This document shows positions 3,962-54,695 of a stretch of 59,215 nucleotides of DNA, piece after piece. Made by a program: the position numbers and the translations under genes. The first letter of the stretch is position 1; every line of letters begins with the position of its first letter. The notes below the pieces were generated by a model, which was not told where the DNA came from, did no database searches, and worked only from the letters and a program-made list of their open reading frames with translations. Source of the DNA: an uncultured Gammaproteobacteria bacterium (GTDB lineage: Bacteria > Patescibacteriota > Microgenomatia > 2-02-FULL-39-11); NCBI GenBank assembly GCA_964544585.1, contig CAZJBV010000007.1, forward strand, positions 1 through 59,215, written 5' to 3'.

Positions 3962-6297
3962 AATACTCCTCTCGCATTCTTCACAAATGCAATAATCTTC
4001 TCGCTATCCTTTTTTCCATTAGTCTCCACTCCTCCTGCAACATCCACTGCAAAAGGCGCAACCCCCGCCACAATCCCTCCCACATTCTCCGGATTTAAAC
4101 CCCCGGCCAAAAAAATCGGATACTGCCTTGCCATATTTTTTGCATACTCCAGTGAAACCATCTTACCTTTCCCTTGTTCTTCCCTATCAACGAGAAAATA
4201 TGCCACAGAATATGAATCAGTTTTTCTTGCAGAAATCGTTTTTATCACCTGACAATCAATTTCATCGCAATAGTAAGGGCTCTCCTCTCCATGTAGTTGC
4301 ACAAAATCTAAATGAAGATTTTGCACAACATGATTTATATACGCTTTATTCTGATCTTGAAAAACTCCCACAAATTGTATTTTTCCAGAAAATGACAAAA
4401 TGATGCGTTTGGCCATATCTTCTGAAATACGCCTCTTCGAACTCGGCACAAAATTCAAGCCAATAAAATCTACACCGGCCTCAATACACATTTGTGCCTC
4501 CTCAACCGTTTTTATTCCACAGATTTTGATTTTAGTTTTCATAGTATTTAAGGGTCGGACCCTGAAGGGTCCGACCCTTTCCAAACTTTTCAACTTCTTT
4601 ATAAGTTTTGCCGGGTCGTCCGATTTCATCAATATAGTTCCAACCAAAACCCCTTTTGCCCCAGCTTTTTTATACCTTTCGATATCACGAGCTTCTTTCA
4701 CTCCTGAAAACGCAAGCGCCGTATGCGTTTTGGGAATTTTTCCTAGTATTTCACATGCTTTTTTCCTGTCAATTGAAAAATCGTCCAAATTGCGAGAATT
4801 GACAGCAACAATCTCCACCCCCGTCTTCAATGCACCTATTAACTCCTCCTCTGTATTCACTTCCACCACCGGCTCCATCCCCAATGCTTCTACCAATTTG
4901 ACCAATTGGACTAATTTGTCCAATGATAATATCTTCGCAATCAACAAAACAGCGTCCGCCCCATTCTTTTTTGCCTTATAAATCTGATCTTTACTTACAA
5001 CAAAGTCTTTACAAAGAATAGGTAAAGTAGTTAAATTCCTCACAAAGGAGAGTAACTCATAGCTTCCGCCAAAACGTTTTTTATCAACCACAACCGACAG
5101 ACAATCTGCCTCCCCCTTTTCATATGCAATTACTTTTCCTTTTACATCTCTCTTCTCTCCCAGTTTTCCTTCTGTTGGGGATTTTAGCTTTATCTCAGCA
5201 ATCAGCGAAGTATTACTATTTTTTGGATGCAAAATAGCATTACGAAATTTATTTCTATTTTGTGAAAAAGATATGAATGTCTCCAATACTTTTTTGGCTC
5301 TTCCTGAATCTATAGACTTCTTCGCCATCAAAATGCCCTCGTCAATAGTCTTTGCTTTTCCGGAAACATACAATGCTAGGGCACTATTGAAAATGACAAT
5401 ATCTCTTCTCCCTCCCTGCCTGCCGGCAGGCAGGCCTCTCTCTCCATCTAAAATTGACTTTATTATGGCTGCATTCTCTTTCGCATCCCCACCATGTATA
5501 AAATTATTTTTTTCATATTTAAATCCATATTTTTTAGGATCAAGAATATATTTTTTTGCCTTTTTTCCTTTTACTTCAAAAACATGGGTCTTTGCCAAAA
5601 CACTCACCTCATCGAGCCCATCCTCACTCGTAAGAATCAAAAGGTGCTCATACCTCAAACGAGCTGCAACGCGTGAAAGTTTCTCGGCAATCTCCAAATT
5701 CGGAACCCCTATTATCTGTCTTTTTACCCCTGCCGGATTCACCAATGGACCCAAAAAATTAAATATCGTCCGAATTCCCAATTCTCTACGTACAAGCGAA
5801 ACATGTTTCATCGCCGGATGATAAAGTGGAGCAAAAAGGAAAGTTATTCCTACTTCCTTCAAACACCTCATTACCTGCGCAGCCGTTAGCATTATATTTA
5901 CTCCCATTGCCTCCAAAACATCAGCACTTCCGCTCTTACTGCTGGCGGCTCGATTTCCATGTTTAGCAACCGCAACCCCTGCGCCTGTTACTACAAACGC
6001 CGTCGCCGTCGATATATTAAATGTCCCCTTTCCATCTCCTCCCGTCCCACACACATCTATTGCTCCCGCCCCAATCGGCATCTTCACCATTCTCCTCCTC
6101 ATTGCTTTTATAAAACCTATGATTTCTTCTTCTGTCTCTCCCTTCATTCGTAAACCAGTCAATAAAGAAGCAATCTGTACCCCTGTCAGGTTTCCTTGCA
6201 ATATTTCCCCCATCAACATCTCTGCCTGTCTGATAGTAAGGTTTCTTGTACTAAGTACGGTATTTAAAAATTGTGTAATTGAAAATTGAGATTTCAT
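3958..6297 (-). CDS. trpD/trpC/trpF: Triple fusion: anthranilate phosphoribosyltransferase (TrpD) - indole-3-glycerol-phosphate synthase (TrpC) - phosphoribosylanthranilate isomerase (TrpF)
   Basis: TrpD: DVCGTGGDG, AKHGNR, SGSADVLE; TrpC: IAEIK..SP, KDF, GADAVLLI, N.RNL; TrpF from internal Met at 4542: KIKICGI, QLHGEE, LAGGL, VDVAGGVE; one continuous 779-aa frame. Confidence 0.93.
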   Translation of the reverse strand: MKSQFSITQFLNTVLSTRNLTIRQAEMLMGEILQGNLTGVQIASLLTGLRMKGETEEEIIGFIKAMRRRMVKMPIGAGAIDVCGTGGDGKGTFNISTATAFVVTGAGVAVAKHGNRAASSKSGSADVLEAMGVNIMLTAAQVMRCLKEVGITFLFAPLYHPAMKHVSLVRRELGIRTIFNFLGPLVNPAGVKRQIIGVPNLEIAEKLSRVAARLRYEHLLILTSEDGLDEVSVLAKTHVFEVKGKKAKKYILDPKKYGFKYEKNNFIHGGDAKENAAIIKSILDGERGLPAGRQGGRRDIVIFNSALALYVSGKAKTIDEGILMAKKSIDSGRAKKVLETFISFSQNRNKFRNAILHPKNSNTSLIAEIKLKSPTEGKLGEKRDVKGKVIAYEKGEADCLSVVVDKKRFGGSYELLSFVRNLTTLPILCKDFVVSKDQIYKAKKNGADAVLLIAKILSLDKLVQLVKLVEALGMEPVVEVNTEEELIGALKTGVEIVAVNSRNLDDFSIDRKKACEILGKIPKTHTALAFSGVKEARDIERYKKAGAKGVLVGTILMKSDDPAKLIKKLKSLERVGPFRVRPLNTMKTKIKICGIKTVEEAQMCIEAGVDFIGLNFVPSSKRRISEDMAKRIILSFSGKIQFVGVFQDQNKAYINHVVQNLHLDFVQLHGEESPYYCDEIDCQVIKTISARKTDSYSVAYFLVDREEQGKGKMVSLEYAKNMARQYPIFLAGGLNPENVGGIVAGVAPFAVDVAGGVETNGKKDSEKIIAFVKNARGVL
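4550..4579. repeat. Perfect 14-bp-arm inverted repeat at the trpC/trpF junction
   Basis: aagggtcggaccct-ga-agggtccgaccctt. Confidence 0.9.
5414..5434. repeat. 21-bp 'PAGRQ' palindromic element, in frame in trpD
   Basis: ccctgcctgccggcaggcagg; encodes LPAGRQG. Confidence 0.9.
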
Positions 6298-6312
6298 TGA
6301 AAATTTAAAATT

Positions 6313-6333
6313 CCTGCCTGCCGGACAGGCAGG
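6313..6333. repeat. 21-bp 'PAGRQ' palindromic element, intergenic, inside a TGAAAAT heptamer array
   Basis: cctgcctgccggacaggcagg. Confidence 0.85.
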
Positions 6334-6338
6334 GAAAA

Positions 6339-6917
6339 TTAAAAATTTAGAAAATTCCTCAGAATTTTCCTCCCCTCCTCCGTCCCAATCGATTCCGGAT
6401 GAAACTGTATTCCATATATCGGATACTCAGTATGCCTAACCCCCATAATCTCTCTATCATCCAAAGACTCCGAAGTCACCTCAAGACATTTAGGTATCGA
6501 TGTCTTTTCCCCCACGAGGGAATGATAACGCATGCCCAAAAGCGGATTTTTGACCTTTTGGAAAATACCCTTACTATTATGCTTAATTAAACTTTTCTTC
6601 CCGTGTTTCACCATCCCTGCCCTTACCACTCTCCCGCCAAAAGCATAAATTACTCCTTGATGCCCAAGACATACGCCTAAAATAGGAATGTTTTTCCCAA
6701 TCTTCAAGATCACATCACTACATACGCCAAAATATGCCCTATCGGAAGGATCTCCTGGTCCCGGCGAAATTACAATATGCGTATATTTTCCTCTACCAAC
6801 TTCATCCAAAGTTATTTCATTATTTCTCATAACAACTGGCTTCCCTCCCAATTCCCCAATATACTGGTAAAGGTTATATGTAAACGAATCATAGTTATCA
6901 ATAATGAGTGTTTTCAT
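6339..6917 (-). CDS. trpG: Anthranilate synthase component II (glutamine amidotransferase)
   Basis: Probable start Met at 6917: MKTLIIDNYDSFTYNL, ISPGPG, GVCLGHQ, QFHPES. Confidence 0.96.
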   Translation of the reverse strand: MKTLIIDNYDSFTYNLYQYIGELGGKPVVMRNNEITLDEVGRGKYTHIVISPGPGDPSDRAYFGVCSDVILKIGKNIPILGVCLGHQGVIYAFGGRVVRAGMVKHGKKSLIKHNSKGIFQKVKNPLLGMRYHSLVGEKTSIPKCLEVTSESLDDREIMGVRHTEYPIYGIQFHPESIGTEEGRKILRNFLNF

Positions 6918-6925
6918 ATTAGTGA

Positions 6926-7006
6926 GATAAACGATAAGGGATAAAGGATAAAAGAGTAAATAAATATTACATTGCACTTTTATCTTTTATCTTCATATCT
7001 TTTATC
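6926..7006. repeat. Inverted GATA/TATC heptamer arrays at the trpE-trpG junction
   Basis: GATA at 6926/6933/6940/6947; TATC at 6981/6988/6996/7003. Confidence 0.8.
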
Positions 7007-8540: not shown

Positions 8541-8746
8541 GTATTTCTACACGGTGCCACCTTGCTTTTCGCAATCTCAATAAAAAATCCCGACCAAAGT
8601 CGGGACACATCAAGAGATTACTCTCATTCTTGACATGCTCCGTCCGCCAGCTGGCGGATGACACATGTTGCTTGACTTTCTCCGGTTTCGCCTCCGTATC
8701 CGATTTAGGGATCAGCTCCAAGGGTCCAACCATCCCTCATCATCGC
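8495..8746 (-). promoter_or_regulatory. T-box riboswitch, Trp (UGG) specifier, ultra-short stem I
   Basis: Antiterminator AAGG-UGGCACC-GUG...CAC-CCUU (8535-8563); stem I GCGAUGA-UGAGGG[AUGGUUGGA]CCCUUG-GAGC (8715-8746) with UGG at 8726-8728; overlapping terminator. Confidence 0.88.
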
Positions 8747-9576: not shown

Positions 9577-9649
9577 GGCAGGGTAGCTCAGTGGTAGTAG
9601 CGCACGCTTCATAAGCGTGAAGTCAAGGGTTCGATCCCCTTCCCTGCTA
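9577..9649 (+). tRNA. tRNA-Met(CAU), probably elongator; CCA not encoded
   Basis: Acceptor GGCAGGG/CCCUGCU; anticodon arm CACGC-UUCAUAA-GCGUG; T-arm GGUUCGAUCC; lacks initiator hallmarks (C1:A72 mismatch, three G-C pairs). Confidence 0.92.
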
Positions 9650-9730
9650 CAAGCAATCGTCCAAACAGTTCCTCTCCCCTGGCACTAATAAAATCGCAAA
9701 TAGGACCTGGAAGAATCTCAAAAGAATAGT

Positions 9731-10458: not shown

Positions 10459-10487
10459 TTGACAAACACCCTCTCTAATGATATTAT
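10459..10487 (+). promoter_or_regulatory. Sigma70-type promoter of the tyrosine recombinase
   Basis: TTGACA-17 nt-TATTAT, 7 nt before ATG 10495. Confidence 0.7.
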
Positions 10488-10494
10488 AGGCTCC

Positions 10495-11367
10495 ATGTCA
10501 GCAGTAAATAATGCTTCTTTAGCCTCTGCTCATGAGCTTTTTGTCAAATACCTAAACGACCAAAAACGTGCCCACGCCACCATCTTAGCATACGGCAAGG
10601 ATATCGACCAGCTCAGCAAATTCCTCCAGGATATGGGGAAAAAATCCATTGGTGAAATAGAAAAAGTCGACCTCGAAGCCTTTTTAAAAAAACTCTCCCA
10701 AGATGGCTACACTCCCAAATCGCTTTCTCGAAAAATTAATTCTATAAAAACTTTCTATCGGTTTCTCAAAAATAACACCTACGTTGACCTAAATCCGGCA
10801 GCAGAAATAAGTCACCCTAAATACGATATCAAACCTCCCCGTATTCTTTCCAAACTCGAATATCGGGCATTAAGAGATGCTTGTCGCGGCGACGAAAGAA
10901 CCTATGCCATCGTCGAACTCTTCCTCCAAACTGGTGTCAGAATTGGAGAATTAGCCAATCTCAAGTTAAAAGACATCAAAGAGACAGAACTCTATATCGA
11001 AGCTTTAGAAGGCCACCCCGCCCGCTCCGTTCCCTTAAATAAAGCCGCAATTCAGGCTCTTGATGCCTATATTAAAATCCGTCCCAGCCAAGATGATGGA
11101 GGCGCCCTATTTATTACCAAAACCGGCCGTCCCCTACTCGTCAGAAATATAAGAACCACCATCGATCGCTATTTTAAGCTCGCCGGCATCGAAAATGCTA
11201 AAGTAAACGACCTTCGCCATACATTTATTGCTCATCATCTTGCTTCAGGCACTCCCCTCACCGTCATCTCCAAACTCGTCGGCCACAAACGCTTGTCAAC
11301 CACAGAAAAATATCTCGACCTCGTCAAAGATAAAATGACCGACAACGTCAAACTCGAAGAACTATAA
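10495..11367 (+). CDS. XerC/XerD-like tyrosine recombinase
   Basis: SAM-like N-domain (TILAY..D...L..FL; SRKINSIK.FYRFL); catalytic R in TGVRIGEL, DLRHTF, LVGH, TTEKY. Confidence 0.9.
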   Translation: MSAVNNASLASAHELFVKYLNDQKRAHATILAYGKDIDQLSKFLQDMGKKSIGEIEKVDLEAFLKKLSQDGYTPKSLSRKINSIKTFYRFLKNNTYVDLNPAAEISHPKYDIKPPRILSKLEYRALRDACRGDERTYAIVELFLQTGVRIGELANLKLKDIKETELYIEALEGHPARSVPLNKAAIQALDAYIKIRPSQDDGGALFITKTGRPLLVRNIRTTIDRYFKLAGIENAKVNDLRHTFIAHHLASGTPLTVISKLVGHKRLSTTEKYLDLVKDKMTDNVKLEEL

Positions 11368-12087: not shown

Positions 12088-12297
12088 ATGCATAGAGTGA
12101 ATACTTCTACCAAAAATATGAGCAGATATGCCGGAAAATGGGTGGCAATTTTAGGAGATCGCATTGTTGCCATTGGAGAGACGCTGAAAGAAATAGGTCC
12201 ATTTGTGACTCGCGACGTTAAAAACAAGACGCCAGACGAAAAAATTGCCGCGGCTTTCAAGGTTCCCTACAAAGGCGAGGGTCCCTACATATTGTGA
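12088..12297 (+). CDS. DUF5678-like small protein (alternative start 12118)
   Basis: YAGKWVAI.GDRIVA.GETLKE motif. Confidence 0.7.
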   Translation: MHRVNTSTKNMSRYAGKWVAILGDRIVAIGETLKEIGPFVTRDVKNKTPDEKIAAAFKVPYKGEGPYIL

Positions 12298-12692
12298 GTA
12301 AACAGTCCTCATTTGCTACTTTCAAGTACCACTACAACGGCGAAGGATATTTCCCCATAATTCCATTTTACGTATCCGTAAGCGGCAATCAACTTAAACT
12401 TCGAGCACTCATTGATTCTGGGGCAACAATTTCTGTGTTTAAAGACGAGATAGCGGAACAGCTGGAAATCGAGATAGAAAGTGGGAAAGAAATCTATTTG
12501 GGTGGAGTCGGTGGGAGAATTAGGGGATATATCCACGAGTTAAGCCTTGAAATCGTGGGTAAGAAATTTTTATGCCCGGTGGTTTTTTCCCGAGAATATA
12601 CCGTTTCCTTTAATTTACTAGGAAGGGAGGCTTTTTTTAGACAATTCAAGATTATTTTTGAAGAAAAGCAAAGTCTCTTAAAATTAGAATAA
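12294..12692 (+). CDS. Retropepsin-like (clan AA) aspartyl protease
   Basis: ALIDSGATISV catalytic DSG, GVGG flap, LLGR motif; GTG start overlaps the upstream stop. Confidence 0.85.
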   Translation: MSKQSSFATFKYHYNGEGYFPIIPFYVSVSGNQLKLRALIDSGATISVFKDEIAEQLEIEIESGKEIYLGGVGGRIRGYIHELSLEIVGKKFLCPVVFSREYTVSFNLLGREAFFRQFKIIFEEKQSLLKLE

Positions 12693-13303: not shown

Positions 13304-15652
13304 TTACAATTTCGCCCTCTGCTGTATCTCTGCTTCTACCAGCTCTCGTGGTCGTCCATATTTCAAACGTGACAATTGCAGTATTGCCTCCGCCACTTTC
13401 GGATTCTCCACCCTCTTCTGTGCACCCATATCTTTCCTAAGATCCACCGAAAAAGGCGGCACCGGCTTATTATTAACGATCGTATTTAAATAAGCATTAT
13501 ACACATCCACATTAATTAGATCACCCTCATTAAATACGGGTTGGTACCAGTGCTGGAGGTAATTTGCATCGGTTACACCTATTCGAAATGATACAAGCGT
13601 ACCCACATTTCCAAATACCGCATTTTTCACCTCTTCTTCCATTTGTCCAATAAATTGATTAGCAACAATCAAATTAAGCCTATATTTCCTTGCCTCCGAA
13701 AGTATCTGCGCAAAATCCGGCGTGGCAAAATTCTGAAACTCATCAACATAAAGGTAAAAATCTCTTCTTTTTTCCTCAACCATATCCTGCCTACTCATCG
13801 CCGCCACCAGAATTTTCGGCACCATTATTAAACCCAAGAAGCTCGAATTTTCCTCCCCCAGTCTTCCCTTGGCCAGGTTAATAAGTAGTATCTTACCTTC
13901 ATCCATAATTTTGCGAAAATCAAACGCAGACTTTGACTGACCAATGATATTTCTCATTAGCTTATTCGTCACAAACCGCCCAAATTTAGACACTATATAA
14001 TCCAATACCTCCGACTTATGAAAATCAGAAGTCTGTGCTATCTGATCAGTCCAGTAGCGCCTCACAATTGGATCTTGCACCTTAGGCAAAAGTTCCTGAA
14101 CATAAGCCGAATCAGTCAATACCCTCACCACCTCCACAAAAGACGTCCCAGGATCACTCATTACAGTCAGCATTGCATTCCTTATCGCATGCTCAAATCG
14201 AGGCCCAATAATACCAGTTTTTTGCGGATCATAAAGCTTATACATAAGTCCTATGATAGATGTACATACAAAGTGTTTTTGTTCCTCAGTATGCGCCTCC
14301 AGCATATTTAATCCCATCGGCCTTTCTATATCTGAAGGATCAAAATAAACCACATCCTCTGCCCTTTCGGGAGGAATAAGAGGCAAAATACCCTCCACCA
14401 AATCTCCATGCGGGTCAATCGCTGCTACCCCCTTGCCATTTTTTATATCCTGTAAAATCATGTCCTTTAATAGAACTGATTTCCCCACGCCCGTTTTTCC
14501 AATAATATATATATGCCGTCTTCTATCGTCATCGCCTATATAAACAGGTTTACTTATACCTCTATAAGTGCTTTTCCCTATATACAAACCACCGCGAGGT
14601 ATATCTGCCGGTGCCGGAGCTCTCTTTGACGTCACCCAAAATATATGCGGCGTCTCAACCGATTTATTTGGAAAATGAAATAAAGTCGCCAATTCCTCTG
14701 CTGATAGGACACTATATGGCTTCTTTACAAAAGTCACAATCGGAAAATATCGGTAAATAAAGTCGATCATAAAAGAACTTTTGAGCCTCGTTTTAACCTT
14801 GGTAAAGTTATTTAAATCAGAGGAAAATTGGGCAAAAACAGTTTCTAGGTTATGAAGATGCATTTGGGCTGATTCTTTAGAATAAGAAGAAACAACCAGC
14901 CGTATAACAGTATCAAAGCCTACTCGAGAAATTTTATTTTCAATAGATTCGAGAGTCTTTGGATCTACTTTATACTGGGCTTTTTCCGGATTTGCTTCCT
15001 GTTTTTTGACATTGGATATATAACTTCTTCCCGCCTTTTTCCACTTTCCCGAAGATGGAGAGATAATTATCTGCACCGCCGCTCCTTCGCCCTGACCCAT
15101 TTTACCAAGTGCTGATGTCAAAGACGACAATGGGTCAACAGGCAGATCCTTAAAAACCCTGATTGGATAATAGTCAGCATGCTTCAGTTTAAGTTGCGCA
15201 AATGCCACTTTCCCCTTCTCGTCAAAAATATTATACTCATCGACTTCCCGAATGTCAGCTCCCGGATACGACCCATATATCTGTTTTTCTACAAGATCAC
15301 GCAGTCTACTCGGCACCGATACATAAAATCGTATATCCCCCGGCCTGCCTACTATCTCAAACGAAATATAATCCTGCTGTGACAAAAAAGAAAACATTCC
15401 TCCACGATGCAAAGATGCAAGGGATGAAAATATCTGCTCTGCAGCATCTATTTTTATCTCATTATCCTTTGGTACTGCCACTTGAAGAAGTACAAAATCC
15501 AAGCTTTTTCTTTCCCGACTCCGGTATTTATACCACAGAAATACAATATATCCCAATATAAAAACCAAAACCCCCAATATAGAAAGTACAACAAAACTCA
15601 AGATAAATGCTTCAGTTTGTGAAATTAAAGTCCCCGAAAATTCCTCATTCAT
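13304..15652 (-). CDS. Membrane-anchored VirD4/TraG/HerA-like (DUF87) ATPase
   Basis: N-terminal TM; Walker A GKTGVGKS; IDPHGD; Walker B YVDEFQNF; EARKYRLNL..ANQ. Confidence 0.88.
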   Translation of the reverse strand: MNEEFSGTLISQTEAFILSFVVLSILGVLVFILGYIVFLWYKYRSRERKSLDFVLLQVAVPKDNEIKIDAAEQIFSSLASLHRGGMFSFLSQQDYISFEIVGRPGDIRFYVSVPSRLRDLVEKQIYGSYPGADIREVDEYNIFDEKGKVAFAQLKLKHADYYPIRVFKDLPVDPLSSLTSALGKMGQGEGAAVQIIISPSSGKWKKAGRSYISNVKKQEANPEKAQYKVDPKTLESIENKISRVGFDTVIRLVVSSYSKESAQMHLHNLETVFAQFSSDLNNFTKVKTRLKSSFMIDFIYRYFPIVTFVKKPYSVLSAEELATLFHFPNKSVETPHIFWVTSKRAPAPADIPRGGLYIGKSTYRGISKPVYIGDDDRRRHIYIIGKTGVGKSVLLKDMILQDIKNGKGVAAIDPHGDLVEGILPLIPPERAEDVVYFDPSDIERPMGLNMLEAHTEEQKHFVCTSIIGLMYKLYDPQKTGIIGPRFEHAIRNAMLTVMSDPGTSFVEVVRVLTDSAYVQELLPKVQDPIVRRYWTDQIAQTSDFHKSEVLDYIVSKFGRFVTNKLMRNIIGQSKSAFDFRKIMDEGKILLINLAKGRLGEENSSFLGLIMVPKILVAAMSRQDMVEEKRRDFYLYVDEFQNFATPDFAQILSEARKYRLNLIVANQFIGQMEEEVKNAVFGNVGTLVSFRIGVTDANYLQHWYQPVFNEGDLINVDVYNAYLNTIVNNKPVPPFSVDLRKDMGAQKRVENPKVAEAILQLSRLKYGRPRELVEAEIQQRAKL

Positions 15653-19340: not shown

Positions 19341-21734
19341 CTAACATTCCGAGTATCCACAGGCGTAGCATTTTTTGCATCCTTCCTCATAGGCTAAAGA
19401 GGCTTCCCCACACGAAGGACACAAATCAAAATCAGAAGCTGCAGCCGGCAATAACTGCTGCGTCATTACCGATACCGGTTTTACTTCCTGTTTCAGCTCT
19501 ATTTTTACCTCAGAGGAAATCTGAGAACCATTCCCATTTTTAAGGGCAAAATTAAGATGCATCGCCAAAGCCTTGGCTACAGCATCGGGCAAAGAACGCA
19601 CTCTCTTTTCCCCAAATCCCAAAGACTTCGACCCTCCAATCCCTATCAGCTGATTAAATACCTGTTTTGCCCGCTCTTTGGGCGAAAGAGGCGACGCCAC
19701 CCTCAGCATCGCTGAAATTACTCTTCCCAATGCCTCAGCCATCGCCGCCACATCAGACCCTGCCTTCCCTACATTGATAAAAACTTCCAAAGGCTCATTA
19801 TTACCATTGGTATTTATAGTCACAAATGCAGTCCCGACAGGCGTATCAATCTGGTATGTTGCCCCTGAAACCATCATTGGTCTTGGCTTAATTTCAGGTA
19901 CGACAACCGTTTCCCCGTTTGGTTTTGCCATCTGCTTTTCCTCCCTGCTTGCCCGTCCGGCAGGCGGGCCTGCCGGCAAGGCAGGCTTTTTAGCATCAGT
20001 TCTCTCCAAAACTCCAGGACGCGACCCTTCTCTCATGTAAGTCACACCCTTACAACCCAATTCATACGCCAACGTATACAATTTCTTTACATCTTCTACC
20101 GTATGATTATTAGGAGCATTAACTGTTTTTGAAATCGAGGCATCAACATGACTTTGAATCGCCGCCTGCACCTTCACATGATCCTCCGGCGTCAGATCAT
20201 TAGCCGACACAAAATATTCAGGTACTGGATCGCGAGGATTTGCCTTTTTCCATTCGTCAAACAGAGGATGATAAAGAATATGCTCTCCCAGTCGATCGCG
20301 TCTTATAAACGAAAATTCATAAACAGGTTCAATCCCCGACGTAGTCCCGGAAAGTAATGAAGTCGATCCCGTCGGTGCCTGCTGTGTCAAAATCGAGTTT
20401 CTTATCCCCCACTTCAACATTTTCTTTCTCAAAGACTCAGGCAGTTTTTTGATAAAGTAGCCTTGTAGATATTTTTTCTTATCAAACTTGGGAAAAACAC
20501 CTTTTTCTTTGGCAATTTCGATAGATGCTTCATACACCGAATCGCGAATTAGCTTATAAATTTTATCTATTACCCTAATTGACTCATCAGAACCATATCT
20601 CAATTTCATCTTAATAAGCGCATCCCCAAGTCCCATCGTTCCCACTCCAATTCTTCTTTCCCCCTCCAATTGCACTTTACGAATTTCGTCAAAAACATAT
20701 ACGTCAGCATCAACTACATTATCTTGAAATCTCACCGCCACTTTTGCCGTTTCAGATAGACCCTTGTAATCCATTTTCCCATCCTTCACAAACTGAGAAA
20801 GATTAATAGATCCCAAATTACAAACCCCCCAAGGTGGAAGTCCCTCTTCACCGCACGGATTTACACAATTTACTTTCTCCCAATACCAATTGTTAAACCA
20901 TTTATTGTATCTCTCCATAAATACCACTCCCGGTTCAGCAGATCCCCATGCCGCATCACAAATCAAATCCCACATTTTTCTTGCCGAAACTCTTTTTGTT
21001 ACCTTTACCTTTCCTCCCTTTTTCACCCATTCATCTAAATCTCCATCCCACTCGCTATCATACTTAGGATCTGAAATATCAGGAAACTTCAATTCCCATT
21101 CCGCATCTTTTTTGACTGCCGCCATAAACTTGTCAGATACACACACAGAAAGATTGGCACCAGTAATTCTAGTCAAATCCCTCTTTACCGTTATAAATTC
21201 TTCCACATCTGGATGCCAATCCCAAAGCATAAGCATTAAAGCGCCTCTCCGACTCCCCCCTTGCTGAATAATATCTTTTGTCGCAACACTAAAAAGTTCT
21301 GCCCAATTACATGGTCCCGAAGAATGTCCATTTACTTTTCGCACATATGCTCCTCTTGGTCTCAAAGATGAAAGATTTATTCCTACCCCACCACCCCTTG
21401 CCATAATCTCCACCATCTGTGAAAGCGTTTTCAATATTCCTTCCCGAGAATCATGCGGTGAAGGAATGACAAAGCAATTATAAAAAGTCACTTTTGTTCT
21501 TGTTCCCGCCCCAGCCAAAATCCGACCCCCAGGAACATACTTAAAATCTTCCATCGCTTTGTAAAACCTTTTCTCCCAAGTGTTCCTCTCACCCTTCGTC
21601 GTCTCCACTTCAGAAACTGCAGCAGCCACTCTCCTCCACATTTCTTCCGGAGTCTTTTCCACAGGCTGTCCTTTATCGTTTTTGAGTGCATAGCGGTCAA
21701 GAAAAACTTGTTCCCGTATTCCAGTAAGTTTCAT
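19341..21734 (-). CDS. nrdJ: Class II (AdoCbl-dependent) ribonucleotide reductase with C-terminal TSCPD/Zn-ribbon region
   Basis: PGGRILAG, YNCFV, GGGVG.NLS.LRP, NPCGE, CNLGSINL, APTGS, ISKTVN, terminal CPSC...C..CGYSEC. Confidence 0.95.
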   Translation of the reverse strand: MKLTGIREQVFLDRYALKNDKGQPVEKTPEEMWRRVAAAVSEVETTKGERNTWEKRFYKAMEDFKYVPGGRILAGAGTRTKVTFYNCFVIPSPHDSREGILKTLSQMVEIMARGGGVGINLSSLRPRGAYVRKVNGHSSGPCNWAELFSVATKDIIQQGGSRRGALMLMLWDWHPDVEEFITVKRDLTRITGANLSVCVSDKFMAAVKKDAEWELKFPDISDPKYDSEWDGDLDEWVKKGGKVKVTKRVSARKMWDLICDAAWGSAEPGVVFMERYNKWFNNWYWEKVNCVNPCGEEGLPPWGVCNLGSINLSQFVKDGKMDYKGLSETAKVAVRFQDNVVDADVYVFDEIRKVQLEGERRIGVGTMGLGDALIKMKLRYGSDESIRVIDKIYKLIRDSVYEASIEIAKEKGVFPKFDKKKYLQGYFIKKLPESLRKKMLKWGIRNSILTQQAPTGSTSLLSGTTSGIEPVYEFSFIRRDRLGEHILYHPLFDEWKKANPRDPVPEYFVSANDLTPEDHVKVQAAIQSHVDASISKTVNAPNNHTVEDVKKLYTLAYELGCKGVTYMREGSRPGVLERTDAKKPALPAGPPAGRASREEKQMAKPNGETVVVPEIKPRPMMVSGATYQIDTPVGTAFVTINTNGNNEPLEVFINVGKAGSDVAAMAEALGRVISAMLRVASPLSPKERAKQVFNQLIGIGGSKSLGFGEKRVRSLPDAVAKALAMHLNFALKNGNGSQISSEVKIELKQEVKPVSVMTQQLLPAAASDFDLCPSCGEASLAYEEGCKKCYACGYSEC
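19944..19985. repeat. 42-bp nested 'PAGRQ' element, in frame in nrdJ
   Basis: cctgcttgcccgtccggcaggcgggcctgccggcaaggcagg; removing it gives KKEEK. Confidence 0.88.
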
Positions 21735-30727: not shown

Positions 30728-31838
30728 CTCTAAAATTGTAACTTCAGAAGGCTTGACGTTTGACGACGTCCTTATTTTGCCGGACTATACAGATACCAAA
30801 CGCCAGGACATTTCTCTCAAAACCCGCCTTACCCCAAAAATTTCCCTCGAGATTCCTATCCTCTCCTCTCCCATGGATACAGTCACAACTGCACCTATGG
30901 CATTAAGTCTCGCCAAACTTGGCGGTATAGGCTTTATCCATCGAAACCTAACAATAGACCAACAAGTAGAAGAAATAAAAGTCGTCAAAACAGGTAATCA
31001 TATGGTCGGCGCAGCAGTCGGCGTCGGCCGCGACCTCGAAGAACGCGTCGCCAAAATAGTTGCCGTCGATGTCGACATAATTTTAGTCGATTCCGCCCAT
31101 GGCTTTTCTAAATGGGTCATCGAAGCCATAGAATTCATTTCGGGAAAATATCCAAATATAGAAATTATCGGAGGAAATATCTCCACAAAAGAAGCCGCCG
31201 AAAAACTCATCGAGGCAGGCGCCAAAGCCCTCCGGGTCGGTATGGGCCCGGGATCAATCTGTACCACCAGAGTCATCTCCGGCATGGGTGTCCCCCAAAT
31301 TACCGCCATCATGGAAGTCTACGCTGTGGCCAGAAAACATGATATTCCCATTATCGCCGACGGCGGTATTAAAAGTTCTGGGGACATTACCAAGGCATTA
31401 GCCGCTGGTTCAGATACGGTCATGCTCGGCTCTCTTCTAGCCGGCGCCGACGAAGCTCCCGGCGAAAAAGTAACCCTGCCTGCCCGTCCGGCAGGCGGGC
31501 CTGCCGGCAGGCAGGGCATAAAAGGCAAAGAATTTAAAAGATATAGAGGCATGGGCTCGGTTGCCGCCATGAAAGAAGGCGGCGCCGCCCGCTACGGCCA
31601 AGAATACGTCAAAGGCAAAGAAAAAACATTAATAGAAGAAGGCGTCGAGGGTCTCGTTCCCTACAAAGGCAGCCTCAAAGACGTCATCATCCAGCTAACA
31701 GGCGGCCTTCGCACCGGTATGTATTACGCCGGAGTAAAAAATATCGAAGAACTCAAAACCAAAACCAAATTCCTAAAAATCACCCAAAGCTCTTTAATCG
31801 AAAACTACCCCCAAGATATCATCATTCAGCAAAAATAA
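30714..31838 (+). CDS. guaB: IMP dehydrogenase (no CBS subdomain)
   Basis: [48 protein letters not shown]. Confidence 0.93.
31475..31516. repeat. 42-bp nested 'PAGRQ' element, in frame in guaB
   Basis: cctgcctgcccgtccggcaggcgggcctgccggcaggcaggg; removing it gives KVTIKGK. Confidence 0.9.
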
Positions 31839-39628: not shown

Positions 39629-39636
39629 ATTTATTT

Positions 39637-41250: not shown

Positions 41251-41268
41251 TATATAATAAGATCCAAT

Positions 41269-41948: not shown

Positions 41949-42026
41949 ACTAGTATGATTTTACTACTTTTGTGAGATTTGTCAACTGCCAACTTGACAA
42001 ATAAAGTAGAGAGAGAGAATAAAAAC

Positions 42027-42278: not shown

Positions 42279-42279
42279 T

Positions 42280-42321
42280 AAATCTCTTTTCCACCTCTTC
42301 CCAATTCACCACATTCCACCA
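42280..42321 (-). repeat. Diverged copy of the sodA 3' end (copy 3)
   Basis: 36/42 nt identical to 44956-44997; reads WWNVVNWEEVEKRFISTRQ*. Confidence 0.9.
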
Positions 42322-42446
42322 GACTAGCTTTCTTTTTTCCCTTCCCATCAACCTCTTAATCTATAATCCTACGAAATAAACAAATTTAGAAGGATACTTA
42401 TCCCATAAAACTTGACAATTTTATAGGAATCATCTATACTTAATCA

Positions 42447-43577: not shown

Positions 43578-43730
43578 TTTCCGCCTCCAAAACCACTCTT
43601 AGCTTAGCCATACTTGACAAACAAAGCAGAAAGAGAATTACTCGGGGGGTGATTAAGATGTCAATAAATTATGAAATATATTTTCGATATGATGTTACTA
43701 AAAGTACGCCTTAGAGGTGTCTCAGATCGT

Positions 43731-43778
43731 AAACCTCTTCTCTACCTCTCCCCAATTCACCGCATTCCACCAAGCCTT
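43731..43778 (-). repeat. Diverged copy of the sodA 3' end (copy 2)
   Basis: 43/48 nt identical to 44956-45003; reads KAWWNAVNWGEVEKRFTI*; followed by a 19-bp match (43709-27 = 44901-19). Confidence 0.92.
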
Positions 43779-43803
43779 GATAAATTAGCTTGTGGTCTGA
43801 TCT

Positions 43804-44214
43804 TTAGGGTTCTTTCCTCTGGATACCCTTAATGTGGTCAAAATCTTTATCGAAACTTAATATTGTCCTTGTCTTCAATCTCTCCATATGAGCTATATTC
43901 AAAGCATCAACAAAATCAACTGAAAGCAAAGAGAATAATTCTAAAGCTCGAAAAAATGCTTTTTTATGAGTTAATTTTAACCCTGGCAAGGCTATAATCG
44001 CCGTTAAATATGTTTTGATAGACTCTCTTGAAAGATGATAAAGCTTTTTTGAGGAAAGTACCTGCACCGCCTCAATTATTGTTGCCTCCGAAGTCACTAC
44101 TTTATAAGATCCTTCCTCCAATCTTTTAAAAATCTTTCTACTCCTTTCGGATTGCTCGGGATTATCTCTGGTTAAATGACGTATAATGAGGTTTGTATCA
44201 AGAAAATCAAGCAT
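43804..44214 (-). CDS. VapC/PIN-domain toxin
   Basis: FLDTNLIIRHL, TIIEA, DFVDAL, ILSFDKDFD. Confidence 0.9.
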   Translation of the reverse strand: MLDFLDTNLIIRHLTRDNPEQSERSRKIFKRLEEGSYKVVTSEATIIEAVQVLSSKKLYHLSRESIKTYLTAIIALPGLKLTHKKAFFRALELFSLLSVDFVDALNIAHMERLKTRTILSFDKDFDHIKGIQRKEP

Positions 44215-44220
44215 ATATCC

Positions 44221-44487
44221 TTATAAACCTTCTTTGGCTACTTCTTCGCTATGTTCTTCAGCGGCAATCATAGACATATCCCTAAAAGAGACTGGTTTTG
44301 GCAGAGCTGGCACCACCTGATAGGTCGCATCCACCAATGAGCCGGCTGGAACAATTTTCACCGAGCGCCGCTCTACCTTAAAAGCTATTTTATCTCTCGG
44401 CTTGACCCCAAGTAGTTTTCTCAAACTCTTTGGTATCGTAATTTGACCCTTTGGACTGACACTGCCAATATATGTATAAGTTTGCAT
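44221..44487 (-). CDS. AbrB/MazE-family antitoxin
   Basis: VSPKGQITIPKSLRKLLGV...DKI.F. Confidence 0.9.
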   Translation of the reverse strand: MQTYTYIGSVSPKGQITIPKSLRKLLGVKPRDKIAFKVERRSVKIVPAGSLVDATYQVVPALPKPVSFRDMSMIAAEEHSEEVAKEGL

Positions 44488-44940: not shown

Positions 44941-45567
44941 TTATTTTAACTGAGTAAACCTCCTCTCCACCTCTCTCCAATTCACTACATTCCACCAAGC
45001 CTTAATATAATCAGCCCTCCTGTTTTGATATTTAAGATAATACGCATGTTCCCAAACATCTACACCTAAAATCGGAGATTTACCCTGCCTGCCGGCAGGC
45101 ACGGCTTCCATCCAAGGATTATCCTGATTAGGTGTGTCAGTAATCGACAGTTTCCCAACATCTGAAATAAGCCACGCCCATCCGCTTCCAAATCGTCCAA
45201 TACCAGCTTTAGAAAAAGCCTCTTGAAACTTGGCAAAATCTCCAAACGTACTTTTTATCGCCTCTGCAACCCTTCCGCTAGGTTCTCCCCCTTTTTTCGG
45301 CCCCATTATCTGCCAAAAAAAGCTATGGTTTATATGCCCTCCCCCATTATTTCTGACTTTCGTTCTCACCTCGGCAGACACCTGATCCAAATTCTTCATC
45401 AATTCCTCCGGTGACATATTCAGAAATTTGTCTTGCCCCTTCAAAAACTCATTTAAGTTTGTCACATAGGCCCCGTGATGCTTGTCATGATGAATTTTCA
45501 TCGTCTGCTCATCAATATAAGGCTCCAAAGCGTTATACGCATAAGGCAATTCAGGTAATGTAAACAT
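44941..45567 (-). CDS. sodA: Fe/Mn superoxide dismutase
   Basis: [47 protein letters not shown]. Confidence 0.96.
45084..45104. repeat. 21-bp 'PAGRQ' element, in frame in sodA
   Basis: cctgcctgccggcaggcacgg; removing it restores MEGK. Confidence 0.9.
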
Positions 45568-52126: not shown

Positions 52127-52151
52127 AATTTTCAACAATTTTGCATTTTGC

Positions 52152-52172
52152 CTGCCCTGCCGGCAGGCGGGC
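52152..52172. repeat. 21-bp 'PAGRQ' element inside an ATTTTGC heptamer array (52138-52193)
   Basis: attttgc attttgc [ctgccctgccggcaggcgggc] attttaa attttgc attttcc. Confidence 0.85.
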
Positions 52173-52193: not shown

Positions 52194-52679
52194 TCACGTG
52201 TGCCTATCCGCCACTTTCGACGCCGCATAAGAATCAGGCTTAGTCTTAACCGGAAATCCAGAACCCCTTATCATTCCTACAATCTCTGTAATCAAAGTCC
52301 GCGTCTCTCCGGTGTGGCCAATATCAACGTGGATCTCCACATCAAACCTCCCAATTCCATCATTTTTAAATAGATGCAATAGCTCATCAGCCAAAGTCAA
52401 AGATAACGTTGCCTCCTGATACATCCTGGTCCTTAAAACATACTTTTTTTTATCATGATTTCTCCTCCAGAAATAAATACCCCCACTCCCCACTCTATGT
52501 ACAACTATGGCGCTTATAAACTCAGTTCCCTGACCATTTTTTGGCTCCGAATCAGTTCCCACAATTAAGCGGTACTGCCTATTTGGCTCTTTTTTCAAAA
52601 ACAATAAAACTTTTGCTCTTACCCCATCCAAATCCAAAACCCCATATGTAGCACTATTAAAATGTCCATTTCCTTTCAT
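52194..52679 (-). CDS. RNase H-like YkuK family protein
   Basis: LIVGTDS, SAIVVHRVG.GGIYF, EIHVDIG..G.T, KP.SYAAS..ADRHT. Confidence 0.88.
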   Translation of the reverse strand: MKGNGHFNSATYGVLDLDGVRAKVLLFLKKEPNRQYRLIVGTDSEPKNGQGTEFISAIVVHRVGSGGIYFWRRNHDKKKYVLRTRMYQEATLSLTLADELLHLFKNDGIGRFDVEIHVDIGHTGETRTLITEIVGMIRGSGFPVKTKPDSYAASKVADRHT

Positions 52680-52741
52680 AGTTTCGCAGACATGAATTTT
52701 ACCATACAATAGAACTTGTTTCATAATCTGCTTTCGTAACG

Positions 52742-52887
52742 AAAGTCCAGAGATTCGGCAAACTGGTAAGAAGCGAGCTAAGGGGAGTATATGGTAAATA
52801 TACTTCTAGGAGATTCGAACCCTGCCTGCCTTGCCTGCCGGCAGGCTGGCCGGCAGGCAGGCAGTTGCAGCAGAATATATGGACTTG
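52742..52887 (+). ncRNA. Probable 6S RNA carrying a 42-nt palindromic insertion
   Basis: Closing stem AAGUCC/GGACUU; inner GCAA/UUGC pairing; terminal hairpin GGAGUAUA/UAUACUUC; 3' 'uucgaacc...uugcagcag...gga' resembles 6S 3' conserved blocks; -10 CATAAT at 52722. Confidence 0.55.
52821..52862. repeat. 42-bp nested 'PAGRQ' element in the putative 6S RNA
   Basis: cctgcctgccttgcctgccggcaggctggccggcaggcaggc. Confidence 0.85.
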
Positions 52888-52926
52888 CAGTAGAAAGAAA
52901 GGTTTTGAAATAAGTTCTAAAACTAA

Positions 52927-53457
52927 ATGGTAAAAATTATCTTTCTTTTTTTATTTTTATTGATCTTTCCTATCTCCATTAAGGCTCAAGCGCCTCAAAA
53001 CCTTCCCATTCTCTCTATTGCCTCTCCCAAACAAGACTCCATCATCTTCGGTACTTCGGCTACCCTCTCCTTTGTCGTCGGAAATTTCAAATTTGATGCT
53101 GGCAGAGTTCTCCTTTGGTTAGATGAGTCAAATCCAGAAAACGCCAACGGGGAAATACTCACCTCTCAATCTAATATTGCTCTCACCTCTCTCCCAGAGG
53201 GAAAACATACCATCCTTCTTGAAGTGGTCAAAAAAGATAACACTTCTTATAAGCCCAAAATCACCAAAAAAGTAGACTTTTTTGTTAAACACCCTCCACC
53301 AACCCAATTTCCCTCACCAACCCCCAGTTCCCTACTTGAAAATTTAAAACAAAACATCCGTCTGGAGGCAGTATTATTTATAATTGGGGGAATCCTTGTA
53401 ATTCTAGGTTTTGTTGTCTTTATGCTCTCCCAGCTTGACAAAAATCCCAGAGTTTGA
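52927..53457 (+). CDS. Exported/membrane hypothetical protein
   Basis: Signal peptide, Ig-like 'L.EGKHTI.LEVV' segment, C-terminal TM. Confidence 0.7.
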   Translation: MVKIIFLFLFLLIFPISIKAQAPQNLPILSIASPKQDSIIFGTSATLSFVVGNFKFDAGRVLLWLDESNPENANGEILTSQSNIALTSLPEGKHTILLEVVKKDNTSYKPKITKKVDFFVKHPPPTQFPSPTPSSLLENLKQNIRLEAVLFIIGGILVILGFVVFMLSQLDKNPRV

Positions 53458-53473: not shown

Positions 53474-53827
53474 ATGTCAACCAGAGTCATCGTTGCCCTA
53501 TTGGCAATTATTATTATCATCATTCTTCTTCTCACCAGCCAACGTTTCACTGCTGGCCTCAGAAGTCGCTTTTCTGGCCTCTTCCCAGGCATCCGACCAA
53601 TTACTACCACAACTCCCAGCCCAACTAAGCTCGCAGGCCTACTTACTCCCACACGCACCCCCACTCCTACCAAATCAAGCTTTGGACAAGTATCGGGTGA
53701 TTCACAAACCACAACCAAAGGCGGAAAGCCTGTCTCTCAAACACCTGCCACAGGGGGAAGTGAATTGGCTCTTCTAATTATTTCTTCCGGAGCTGGAATT
53801 GGCTACGCCTTAAGAAAACTTACTTAG
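53474..53827 (+). CDS. T/P-rich surface protein with an LPxTG-like C-terminal signal
   Basis: N-terminal TM, PT repeats, TPATG + hydrophobic helix + RK tail. Confidence 0.65.
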   Translation: MSTRVIVALLAIIIIIILLLTSQRFTAGLRSRFSGLFPGIRPITTTTPSPTKLAGLLTPTRTPTPTKSSFGQVSGDSQTTTKGGKPVSQTPATGGSELALLIISSGAGIGYALRKLT

Positions 53828-54542
53828 CTTCCTTCTTCTCTTCTTTCGGGGTTTCGACAACATGAGGTGCAATAGGTGCTTCTTCGCTAACTTTACCCTC
53901 CTCCACAGGAGCTGCTTCAGTAGCCGCGAGAGCTGCTGCTTCAACCTTTGCCGCTTCTTCCTCGGCAGCCTGTCTCTCCGCTTCCTTGGATACAAGAGGA
54001 GCAACTTGAACAATCGTCGTTTCGGCAGGTGTCAATATTTTTACCGCCGCCGCTATTTTAATATCAGCTACTTTTATCAATTGATCTATTTCTGTTAGTT
54101 TATTTACATCAATATCTATCCTCTCAGGCAAATCTCCAGGCAATGCCTCCACTTCTACTTCCGAAATTTGCTTTAACAATACCCCAATTTTATTTACCAC
54201 CGCGGGCGCCTCTCCCACAAACTCAATTGGTACATGAGTCGTCACTTTTTCCTTCAAGGAAACTTGTAAAAAATCTACATGAATTGGTTTAGAGTAAACG
54301 GGATCATAGGCAATGTTGTGAATAAGAACCGGCCGCACTTCACCATCCACCCCCACTTCTACCAGCCCAGTTTCCCCAGCCTTTGAAAATATATTCAAAA
54401 AATCAGCTGCCGCCACTTCAATTGCTATAGATTTCACTTTTTTTCCGTAGATATTTGCAGGTAAAATTCCCTGTTTTCTCAGGTTTTTGACTTTTCTACC
54501 CGTCACAGTCCTCTTTTTTGCCTTTAAAGAATATTTTTCCAT
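53820..54542 (-). CDS. rplY: 50S ribosomal protein L25/CTC
   Basis: LRKQGILPANIYG, IHVDF, VPIEFVGEAP, EVEALP.DLPE.I.IDV; promoter TTGACT-17 nt-TAAAAT (54559-54587). Confidence 0.95.
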   Translation of the reverse strand: MEKYSLKAKKRTVTGRKVKNLRKQGILPANIYGKKVKSIAIEVAAADFLNIFSKAGETGLVEVGVDGEVRPVLIHNIAYDPVYSKPIHVDFLQVSLKEKVTTHVPIEFVGEAPAVVNKIGVLLKQISEVEVEALPGDLPERIDIDVNKLTEIDQLIKVADIKIAAAVKILTPAETTIVQVAPLVSKEAERQAAEEEAAKVEAAALAATEAAPVEEGKVSEEAPIAPHVVETPKEEKKEAK

Positions 54543-54585
54543 ATCTTTAGAACATCACATTTTATCGACAAGAATAGCAAAAGTC

Positions 54586-54695
54586 AATTGGCGAGATCCC
54601 TTTTTTTGCGCGCACAGCGGCGGGCCCGGCCGTGCCGGGCAGTCGAGCCTGCCTGCCGGCAGGCAGGCACGGAAAAAAACGGGGTCGAGCCAATT
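54586..54695. mobile_element. 110-bp GC-rich MITE-like / structured element with terminal inverted repeats
   Basis: aattggc...gccaatt ends, gatccc-T7...A7-ggggtc stem, internal gcccggc-cgt-gccgggc hairpin and a 22-bp PAGRQ palindrome (54647-54668). Confidence 0.55.

Follow-up and report, generated by a model that had tools for sequence, protein, structure and literature searches.

A GC-rich palindromic element of 20 or 21 nt, here called X, occurs at eight loci of contig CAZJBV010000007.1 (assembly GCA_964544585.1), a 59-kb stretch of DNA that was analysed over its full length of 59,215 nt and is referred to as the window. X is probably a real and recently active family of palindromic insertions that is mobilised in trans, spreads horizontally and by recombination and is filtered in genes, by a mechanism that we infer from the comparisons given below. 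The sequence of X recurs unchanged in at least a dozen bacterial phyla as well as in viral contigs. All four genic copies of the window lengthen their genes in frame, at loops or linkers, by segments that the nearest orthologues do not have. An earlier note on this stretch, made from the letters alone, had described eight copies of a 21-bp palindrome, nested in places to 42 bp, that enters proteins and RNAs without breaking the frame; the copies were all recovered, and the idea of a dispersed palindromic insertion element entering proteins in frame was borne out.

X occurs in three forms. The canonical unit, X-20, is the perfect 20-nt palindrome CCTGCCTGCCGGCAGGCAGG, which folds into an 8-bp stem with a CCGG loop and stands out with 75% G+C in a window of about 40% G+C and uniformly negative GC skew. 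X-21 is a 21-nt form with one unpaired (bulge) base, CCNTGCC..., and the third form is a 41/42-nt nested composite, a two-tier hairpin with one unit within another. The fixed unit of three times seven nucleotides that had been proposed does not hold, since the canonical unit has 20 nt and 21-nt variants, an exact 20-mer and 41/42-mers coexist; outside open reading frames (ORFs) a site gains exactly 20 nt net. X-21 has its extra base at varying positions: in the window it is found as CC-C-TGCC at 5414, CC-G-TGCC (gene strand) at 45084, GCCGG-A-CAGG at 6313 and CCTGCC-C-TGCC at 52151, and elsewhere it mostly follows CC. All three long copies of the window parse as nested units, as had been claimed. 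Those in the ribonucleotide reductase gene nrdJ and in guaB consist of an exact or near-exact X-20 carrying the same unusual 21-nt inner unit, which also parses as a CGTC-tagged hairpin at the exact centre of X-20, and they represent one and the same entity. The guaB composite equals an exact X-20 with the 21-nt unit CCTGCCCGTCCGGCAGGCGGG after position 4 plus one G or, in an equivalent parse, the CGTC-tagged CGTCCGGCAGGCGGGCCTGCC at the exact centre of X-20 plus one G. The 41/42-nt composite was also found in metagenomes, in 23 stretches whose hosts range from 0.33 to 0.68 in G+C; several of these carry it within ORFs, where it encodes the same 14 residues. As it recurs with unrelated flanks, the composite is itself a propagating unit.

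The genic copies of the window lie in trpD, nrdJ, guaB and sodA, gene labels with which Pfam agrees, class II being assigned to NrdJ by its relatives. Excision of 21 or 42 nt gives an orthologue-like peptide in four of the four genes. The seven residues added to TrpD (ERG-LPAGRQG-GRRD) are absent from 20 of 20 aligned relatives, the nearest of which is 70% identical, and the 14 residues added to NrdJ are absent from 40 of 40 aligned orthologues, at a site that forms a variable K/E-rich linker. In AlphaFold models the inserts of IMPDH and superoxide dismutase (SOD) map to a turn or loop: the former sits in a beta-hairpin, at the turn that joins strands E251-254 and E273-276, and pLDDT is low over residues 262-269; the latter lies (model pLDDT 91) at residues 156-159, the only segment below 50 pLDDT.

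The comparison of filled and empty alleles that the earlier note had in mind is available for guaB. The empty allele (GTA ACT/ATA) is present in a same-species contig from another sample (L444; L numbers denote retrieved stretches) with 99.6-100% identity over 3.5 kb, and a relative with 84% amino acid identity (L445) carries a single 21/22-nt unit (CCTTGCCTGCCGGCAGGCAAGG) at the same site. With 42 nt in the window, one unit in L445 and none in L444, the empty, single and double states thus all occur at one guaB site. Nine single-nucleotide polymorphisms (SNPs) distinguish the filled from the empty allele; all lie within 110 nt upstream of the insert, seven of them at third codon positions, and the rest of the 3.5 kb is identical. 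This clustering reads as the signature of a recombination or co-conversion tract and not of random error.

In sodA the copy reads GCC GTG CCT GCC GGC AGG CAG on the gene strand, and homologues with and without AVPAGRQ are interleaved on a neighbour-joining tree. Five filled orthologues (66-80% amino acid identity) share the 21 nt bar a single difference, while the synonymous sites to either side are scrambled: at conserved residues, third codon positions agree in 66/70 cases (0.94) in the insert versus 82/147 and 74/177 (0.42-0.56) in the flanks. Since synonymous sites are frozen only inside the insert, the conservation is one of DNA and not of peptide, and LPAGRQ peptides are therefore not conserved functional motifs, which the earlier note had named as a possible refutation of its reading; elsewhere the sequence is mostly non-coding. 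The sodA 21-mer GCCGTGCCTGCCGGCAGGCAG also lies at a different site in nrdJ of another genome (L035). The pattern at sodA implies one of three processes: X has recently and repeatedly entered a preferred site, it has been lost precisely, or alleles have been exchanged. An X-like match is furthermore found around position 4668 of L288/L289 within the D-Tyr-tRNA deacylase gene (dtd, 4634-5104) of a Gottesmanbacteria genome with an empty sodA, and X lies in different housekeeping genes in different relatives.

Only four of the eight copies in the window are genic, compared with about 91% of coding sequence (p=0.004). Among the matches listed, 44 of 122 X-21 copies versus 19 of 125 X-20 copies lie in maintained ORFs (Fisher p=2e-4), and the X-20 cases located in ORFs need a flanking C or G to reach 21 nt. 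This enrichment of the 21-nt form looks like selection, not design. The genic copies listed use the frames in the proportion 37 PAGR : 14 CLPAG : 13 ACRQA, and (L/V/M)PAGRQ is the only cysteine-free frame. As judged from their reading frames the genic copies appear to be translated, and nothing points to their removal from RNA. Frameshifting 20-mers within real genes, which would hint at removal at the RNA level, were also looked for, and the five candidates are all spurious ORFs.

A search allowing up to four edits gave exactly eight X loci in the window (Table 1), and no match was obtained in 100 dinucleotide-preserving shuffles of it. The copy at 6313 lies in A/T-rich heptamer-like sequence, in the 41 nt that separate the stop of trpG (6339) from the start of trpD (6297); its fold is a stem of 8 bp closed by a loop of 5 nt (-8.9 kcal/mol, z -3.8). 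The copy at 52151, a weak hairpin, is flanked by short (a/c)atttt(g/a/c) heptamer units and sits between aattttg/cattttg and catttta/aattttg/cattttc. Of the heptamer arrays described earlier at 6313 and 52152, the restoration of the repeat phase by removal of 21 nt was confirmed by eye at 52151, but the arrays are short and degenerate and none is called by TRF. The pair at 52821 lies in a 202-nt divergent spacer from 52724 to 52927, has a total edit distance of 2 to the nested parse and folds with -19.5 kcal/mol (z -4.4); the 6S RNA suspected at this place matches no Rfam family, either at the gathering score or at E<=1. The PF04308 RNaseH-like (DUF458) gene thereby has X on both sides (52151-52171 and 52821-52861), which is probably a coincidence of intergenic landing. 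Around 54648 the inverted repeat behind the earlier label "MITE-like" (MITE, for miniature inverted-repeat transposable element) is present between an rplY-like gene and a DUF4012 gene and spans 110 nt, but its arms are imperfect and X-20 is off centre, about 17 nt to the 3' side of the midpoint. Beside X-20 and inside the same repeat, a second GC-rich palindrome, GCCCGGC-CGT-GCCGGGC, occupies 54615-54647; its centre (CCGT/CGTC-type) resembles the inner unit of the 41/42-mer. A lone half-site, CCTGCCTGCC, is found at 16255-16264 in a 797-aa ORF (16146-18539, minus strand), where it is read as NGQAGKK; it may be a chance match or a decayed copy.

Table 1. Copies of X in the window, features associated with them and the genes that host or adjoin them.
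Feature	Position	Strand	Sequence, structure or basis	Location or remark
X-21	5414..5434		CC-C-TGCCTGCCGGCAGGCAGG, i.e. C + exact 20-mer	TrpD domain of TrpD-TrpC-TrpF fusion
X-21 variant	6313..6333		CCTGCCTGCCGG-A-CAGGCAGG, extra A right of centre	trpG-trpD spacer
42-nt nested composite	19944..19985			ribonucleotide reductase gene (19341-21734, -); adds 14 residues
42-nt nested composite	31475..31516			guaB/IMPDH (30714-31838, +); adds 14 residues
X-21	45084..45104			sodA (44941-45567, -); adds AVPAGRQ in a loop
Diverged X-21	52151..52171		CCTGCC-C-TGCCGGCAGGC-G-GG	22 nt downstream of PF04308 RNaseH-like gene (52194-52724, -)
Nested pair	52821..52861		X-20 (CCTGCCTG/CCGGCAGGCAGG) carrying X-21 (CCTTGCCTGCCGGCAGGCTGG) at 5' edge of loop	
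Exact X-20	54648..54667			between arms of 110-nt imperfect inverted repeat
Imperfect inverted repeat	54586..54695		22-nt arms, 82% complementary, 66 nt apart	hosts X-20
9-SNP cluster	31367..31449	+		filled (window) vs empty (L444) guaB alleles, directly upstream of insertion
TrpD-TrpC-TrpF fusion	3958-6297	-	Pfam	
TrpG	6339-6977	-	Pfam	
Class II (B12-dependent) ribonucleotide reductase, NrdJ	19341-21734	-	class assigned by relatives	
IMPDH (guaB)	30714-31838	+	Pfam	
Fe/Mn SOD (sodA)	44941-45567	-	Pfam	

The range of X was surveyed in a species-representative genome collection and in viral contigs; the X loci examined are 8-kb stretches, 2.0-2.2 Mb in total. The exact X-20 was found in at least 120 genome stretches with unrelated flanks. 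Its carriers among the matches listed include many classes of the candidate phyla radiation (CPR), Omnitrophota, Planctomycetota, Bdellovibrionota, Desulfobacterota, Nitrospirota-like lineages, Chloroflexota and Bacteroidota, the latter with the cultured Winogradskyella echinorum KCTC 22026, Flagellimonas yonaguniensis, Longitalea luteola and Flavivirga. The 21-nt class CC[AGT]TGCCTGCCGGCAGGCAGG was found in at least 119 stretches and adds, among the matches listed, Margulisiibacteriota, Ignavibacteriae, Methylomirabilota, Firmicutes and Actinomycetota. X-20 is present in 35 viral-contig stretches, some of them with 3-6 copies; neither of two control palindromes, of which one was matched in composition and the other had its arms swapped, gave a viral match. 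The occurrence of the identical 20-mer across many phyla and viral contigs departs from the lineage restriction that a likeness to Rickettsia palindromic elements (RPEs) or repetitive extragenic palindromic sequences (REPs), as drawn in the earlier note, would carry. The abundance of X depends on lineage, as 640 kb of Microgenomates nrdJ loci hold two copies only versus eight in the 59-kb window. In plasmid and cultured-phage collections the search with the 41-mer gave only chance GC-rich matches and a native motif of a Runella aldehyde dehydrogenase (ALDH): in the ALDH gene of Runella slithyformis plasmid pRUNSL05 (L470, 1490-1530) CGGGCCTGCCGGCAGGCAGG encodes the native family motif ETGLPAGRIQGE. 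This look-alike is not an insertion and calls for caution in motif-only counting. The multi-copy viral contigs gave almost no Pfam matches and no transposase. In one viral stretch (L323, 3916-4142; IMGVR_UViG_3300025106_000007) at least 10 head-to-tail copies of the 21-nt variant CCATGCCTACCGGCAGGCAGG run to the stretch end, which reflects either a real tandem amplification or an assembly loop. No paper with the X sequence, the LPAGRQ peptide or palindromic insertions in CPR was found in the literature searched.

Sites of insertion are left clean. No target-site duplication was found at guaB, array or tRNA sites, and where X lies in tandem arrays or tRNA-derived sequence, taking out exactly 20 nt (21 for X-21) brings back the phase of the repeat or the sequence of the tRNA. 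Landing sites are enriched for DNA apt to slip or to extrude as hairpins. Period-7 arrays hold 4-9% of the X sites versus 0.3-0.6% of random positions in the same loci, an enrichment of about 15-fold, and X also lands at the tips of other palindromes, in its own loop and in tRNA D arms. Flank preferences are weak: the commonest context of X-20 is an A to the left and a T to the right, and position -1 is a purine in 90% of the X-21 copies. The orientation of the asymmetric X-21 shows no bias relative to GC skew (58:52) or to the coding strand, and some copies have terminator-like A-run/T-run flanks. A viral tRNA-Met with X-20 in its variable arm (L314, 2239-2330) is still called by ARAGORN as a 92-nt tRNA with a long extra arm; in a related contig (L291, about 8560-8660) the same tRNA-Met with X has its T arm deleted. 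A second cross-phylum hairpin family, GTCAT(T/C)C(C/T)GAGCG...CGAAGGATC with variants GTCATTGCGAG...GCAATC, recurrently hosts X at its tip (L383, L390, L398, L407, L433, L364/L427, L394, L423, L457) and may be another widely shared mini-palindrome.

The tRNA-associated copies led to a candidate partner enzyme. The X-bearing "tRNA" matches are mostly dead 5' tRNA fragments interrupted by X and followed by a small ORF and then by the intact same tRNA, and the ORF in between encodes a GIY-YIG nuclease of 80-88 aa (PF01541). Thirteen such genes are present in 2.17 Mb of X loci compared with none in 0.9 Mb of control loci, and seven of the 13 have X, or a hairpin resembling it, 16-40 nt upstream of their start codon (binomial ~1e-13, for loci that were chosen for X); one of the seven is L186, where X is 151 nt from the called ORF start and the reading frame looks interrupted. 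Most X copies are solo, without a GIY-YIG gene. In the viral L472, the closest viral relative, three X-like units lie in the tRNA adjacent to the GIY-YIG gene. The arrangement of 5' tRNA fragment, GIY-YIG gene and intact tRNA is seen at L117 (2100-2480), L186 (3680-4061) and L321 (480-900) as well as in L198, L438, L157, L408 and L154, with tRNA-Lys, tRNA-Gly, Leu/Ser-type and other tRNAs in different phyla. By its layout the cassette resembles a free-standing nuclease gene of the homing type, which would target tRNA genes and regenerate them by duplication of their 5' part. In L140 (3700-4200), X (read as PACRQAG) followed by a GIY-YIG domain lies in frame in a 701-aa HsdS-like ORF for type I restriction specificity, between its two repeated conserved regions. 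The GIY-YIG nuclease is the best current candidate partner of X, a lead and not a demonstration. A tblastn search for REP-associated tyrosine transposases (RAYTs) or IS200 in 2.2 Mb of X loci, of limited sensitivity, gave one weak IS200-like match (L088) that lies 1.5 kb from X and is not flanked by it.

Taken as a mobile family, X would be moved in trans by an enzyme encoded outside the window that probably acts on the folded hairpin or cruciform. It would cross phyla horizontally, possibly with viral DNA, and within species homologous recombination would additionally spread filled and empty alleles; selection would afterwards purge insertions that break frames or fall into buried positions. 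Several points weigh against this reading. The cross-phylum identity of the 20-mer is hard to square with ordinary pairs of transposase and element ends that co-evolve, and the varied position of the extra base within the window is not expected from a simple copy-paste of one master. Pfam finds no GIY-YIG, HUH, reverse transcriptase or transposase gene in the window, which agrees with the earlier statement that a transposase is absent, the sole recombinase being of the Xer tyrosine type (10459-11367). The adjacency to GIY-YIG genes may be indirect, with dead 5' tRNA fragments serving as tolerant, hairpin-forming landing sites. The evidence base is limited to the 59-kb window and 8-kb loci, and the mobility of X is read from the comparison of sequences.

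Two alternatives give the GIY-YIG nuclease a larger part, and both are possible at a rather low probability. In the one, X is a horizontally transmitted "nano-transposon" of a class not described before, analogous to the REP-RAYT system and mechanistically unrelated to it, whose identity across phyla and their viruses would be kept through recognition of the hairpin or cruciform by the widespread small, tRNA-cassette-building GIY-YIG nuclease; X would then enter the tips of DNA hairpins seamlessly and remodel surface loops in essential enzymes. In the other, of similarly modest plausibility, X is the cis hairpin or target of the tRNA-homing nucleases of about 80 aa, so that solo X would relate to the nuclease as REP to RAYT. 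Among GIY-YIG enzymes are homing endonucleases, structure-specific nucleases and restriction enzymes that cut palindromes. SegB is a GIY-YIG enzyme of the T4 tRNA cluster (PMC2330249), and Cfr42I cuts CCGCGG (PMC2241918). The upstream X in seven of 13 genes, the three units in L472 and the joint ORF of X and domain in L140 favour such a relation. The loci were selected for holding X and the sample is therefore biased, six of the 13 genes have no nearby X, more distant GIY-YIG genes are likewise without it in the viral contigs, which yielded six GIY-YIG loci in all, the window holds no such gene, and the adjacency may reflect landing of X in dead tRNA fragments. That X is REP-like and moved by a RAYT or an IS200/IS605-type HUH (Y1) transposase acting on single-stranded hairpins, as the earlier note had considered, is unlikely. 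Hairpin formation, the missing target duplication, the apparently precise loss, the unpaired CGTC in the inner unit of the composite and the weak match in L088 would fit it, and REPs are known within ORFs and other palindromes (PMC3733652). X-20 and X-21 have no GTAG or CGTC end tag and no conserved flanking tetranucleotide, X-21 lacks an orientation bias relative to GC skew or coding strand, no Y1 transposase is encoded in the window and one weak match was obtained in 2.2 Mb by a search of limited sensitivity, and X is not species-specific, unlike REP families. Still less probable is a route through RNA, in which RNA hairpins enter loops of RNA or DNA and are then copied back, or in which X is removed or bypassed at the RNA level. 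RNA-mediated mobility of the small dispersed repeats (SDRs) of cyanobacteria is said to have been proposed by Elhai. Structured RNAs offer some of the loops in which X is found (the D and variable arms of tRNAs), and no DNA enzyme could be tied to X; on the other side, the window has no reverse transcriptase (the RVT_3 match is an RNase H domain), many targets are arrays that do not look transcribed, and removal from mRNA is unnecessary as every genic copy keeps the frame and 20-mers do not split any real gene.

The remaining explanations are contradicted by the data. X could be the excision footprint of a larger transposon with the 10-nt ends CCTGCCTGCC...GGCAGGCAGG, as the palindrome equals two abutted inverted ends and the variable extra base resembles junction noise. 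This is very improbable, since 2.0 Mb of X loci contain no systematic distant pairs of left and right arms, the composite 41-mer recurs identically at unrelated sites, and repeated landing at hairpin tips and in X itself is not expected of footprints. It is scarcely credible that X represents native or convergent features, be it functional LPAGRQ motifs or independent GC hairpins such as terminators: the Runella ALDH sequence is a family motif and some copies have A-run/T-run flanks as in terminators, but synonymous sites are frozen only inside the sodA insert, inserts are absent from the nearest orthologues, most copies are non-coding, control palindromes gave no matches, and ORFs and tRNAs host copies too. 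Just as implausible is an artefact, from sequencing, adapters or assembly, that metagenome assemblies have in common. The carriers are mostly metagenome-assembled genomes and the contig end of L323 may be an assembly loop; against this, the genic copies of the window keep the reading frame, diverged and nested copies exist, cultured isolates carry X, and the same alleles are found in independent assemblies of the same species (L201-L203).

The ribonucleotide reductase of the window is nearest to that of Candidatus Gottesmanbacteria and other Microgenomates (CPR/Patescibacteria) with 80% identity at best, and exact protein matches assign the window to the species of GCA_016186845.1 of the NC_groundwater series, to which it is 99.97% identical over 5.8 kb. 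The trp genes form an operon, Pfam further places NrdR with NrdJ and GuaA with IMPDH, and Rfam finds two tRNAs. A gene for a 23S rRNA-intervening-sequence protein (PF05635; 12721-13225) adjoins tRNA-Ile(TAT), near an aspartyl-protease-like ORF (12294-12692), the Xer-type recombinase gene and tRNA-Met (9577-9650), followed by a VirD4/TraG-like ATPase gene (13304-15652); this neighbourhood may be the remnant of an integrated element. Toxin-antitoxin genes are dense at 34085-44487 and 57829-58491. They comprise four PIN-domain genes (34085-34531, 39637-40068, 41269-41649 and 43804-44214), three of which adjoin MazE/AbrB-type partners (40065-40349, 41643-41948 and 44221-44487), and an AbiEii nucleotidyltransferase toxin gene.

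If truly mobile, X is no larger than the SDRs, the smallest mobile elements that have been proposed to date, and it looks like one of the most widely shared; its unchanged sharing across distant phyla raises the question of what recognises or copies a bare 20-nt hairpin so faithfully. It adds loops of 7 or 14 residues to core enzymes (SOD, IMPDH, ribonucleotide reductase and TrpD) in a streamlined genome of about 1 Mb, which makes it a natural supplier of varied loops and a convenient marker for strains that diverged very recently. Were the link to the GIY-YIG/tRNA cassette real, it would provide a large family of tiny nucleases with a function. Annotation and alignment can be led astray by X, which creates spurious "LPAGRQ" motifs and breaks tRNA calls. 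Its presence in cultured Bacteroidota makes mobility directly testable.

Among known systems several resemble X in part. SDR1-8 of Nostoc punctiforme and relatives are reportedly 21-27 nt in length, hairpin-like and without a known enzyme; they are said to lie in heptamer arrays and inverted-repeat mini-elements, to be self-nested and to be essentially confined to one cyanobacterial subgroup. X with its 20-21 nt shares the hairpin potential, the dispersal with unrelated flanks, the embedding in heptamer arrays (the 15-fold enrichment; 52151) and in mini inverted repeats (54648), and the self-insertion that yields nested forms, a likeness to the reported behaviour of the SDRs. Unlike SDRs, X is identical in sequence across at least a dozen phyla and viral contigs, is a perfect palindrome and is frequent in frame inside protein genes. 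The SDR report (Elhai et al., 2008, Genome Res 18:1484) is cited in PMC3116915 and PMC2884548. REPs fall into GTAG- and CGTC-tagged superfamilies (PMC3733652, PMC3116915). They and the REPINs likewise are short GC-rich palindromes with many dispersed copies, some of them in frame in ORFs or within other palindromes, and count as probably non-autonomous. X-20 and X-21 differ in having neither an unpaired GTAG/CGTC tag, which is found unpaired (as CGTC) only in the composite inner unit, nor a CCA-like tail; X occurs as singletons and not as inverted dimers, is a perfect palindrome without a designed loop, is not species- or genus-specific, and no linked RAYT was found in the window and the 2.2 Mb of X loci.

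RPEs are about 100-150 bp long, encode tens of residues and are known only from Rickettsia. As X, they are palindromic DNA of a selfish kind that is found in frame in essential protein genes at tolerant surface positions, and they are translated, as X appears to be (Ogata et al., 2000, as cited in PMC3184786 and PMC3733652). X is distinguished from them by its 20-42 nt, by the addition of only 7-14 residues, by its cross-phylum range and by the CPR host of the window. Fungal and algal mitochondria contain GC clusters, palindromic mini-inserts that include the "byp" elements. These are also GC-rich palindromic mini-elements in AT-richer genomes that enter coding regions and each other (related reports: PMC7218506, PMC4524435), but they are organellar, some are bypassed in translation and not translated, and their sequences are unrelated to X. 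MITEs and IS200/IS605 derivatives share with X the non-autonomous, structured and dispersed character; MITEs have 70-300+ bp with terminal inverted repeats and target duplications, in contrast to the 20-42 nt of X without duplication, and IS200/IS605 derivatives have a fixed tetra- or pentanucleotide flank and keep to one strand relative to replication, neither of which applies to X. Among the very small palindromic mobile repeats X is thus closest to the SDR and REP classes, and new are its cross-phylum and viral range, the perfect 20-nt palindrome and the possible link to GIY-YIG nucleases.

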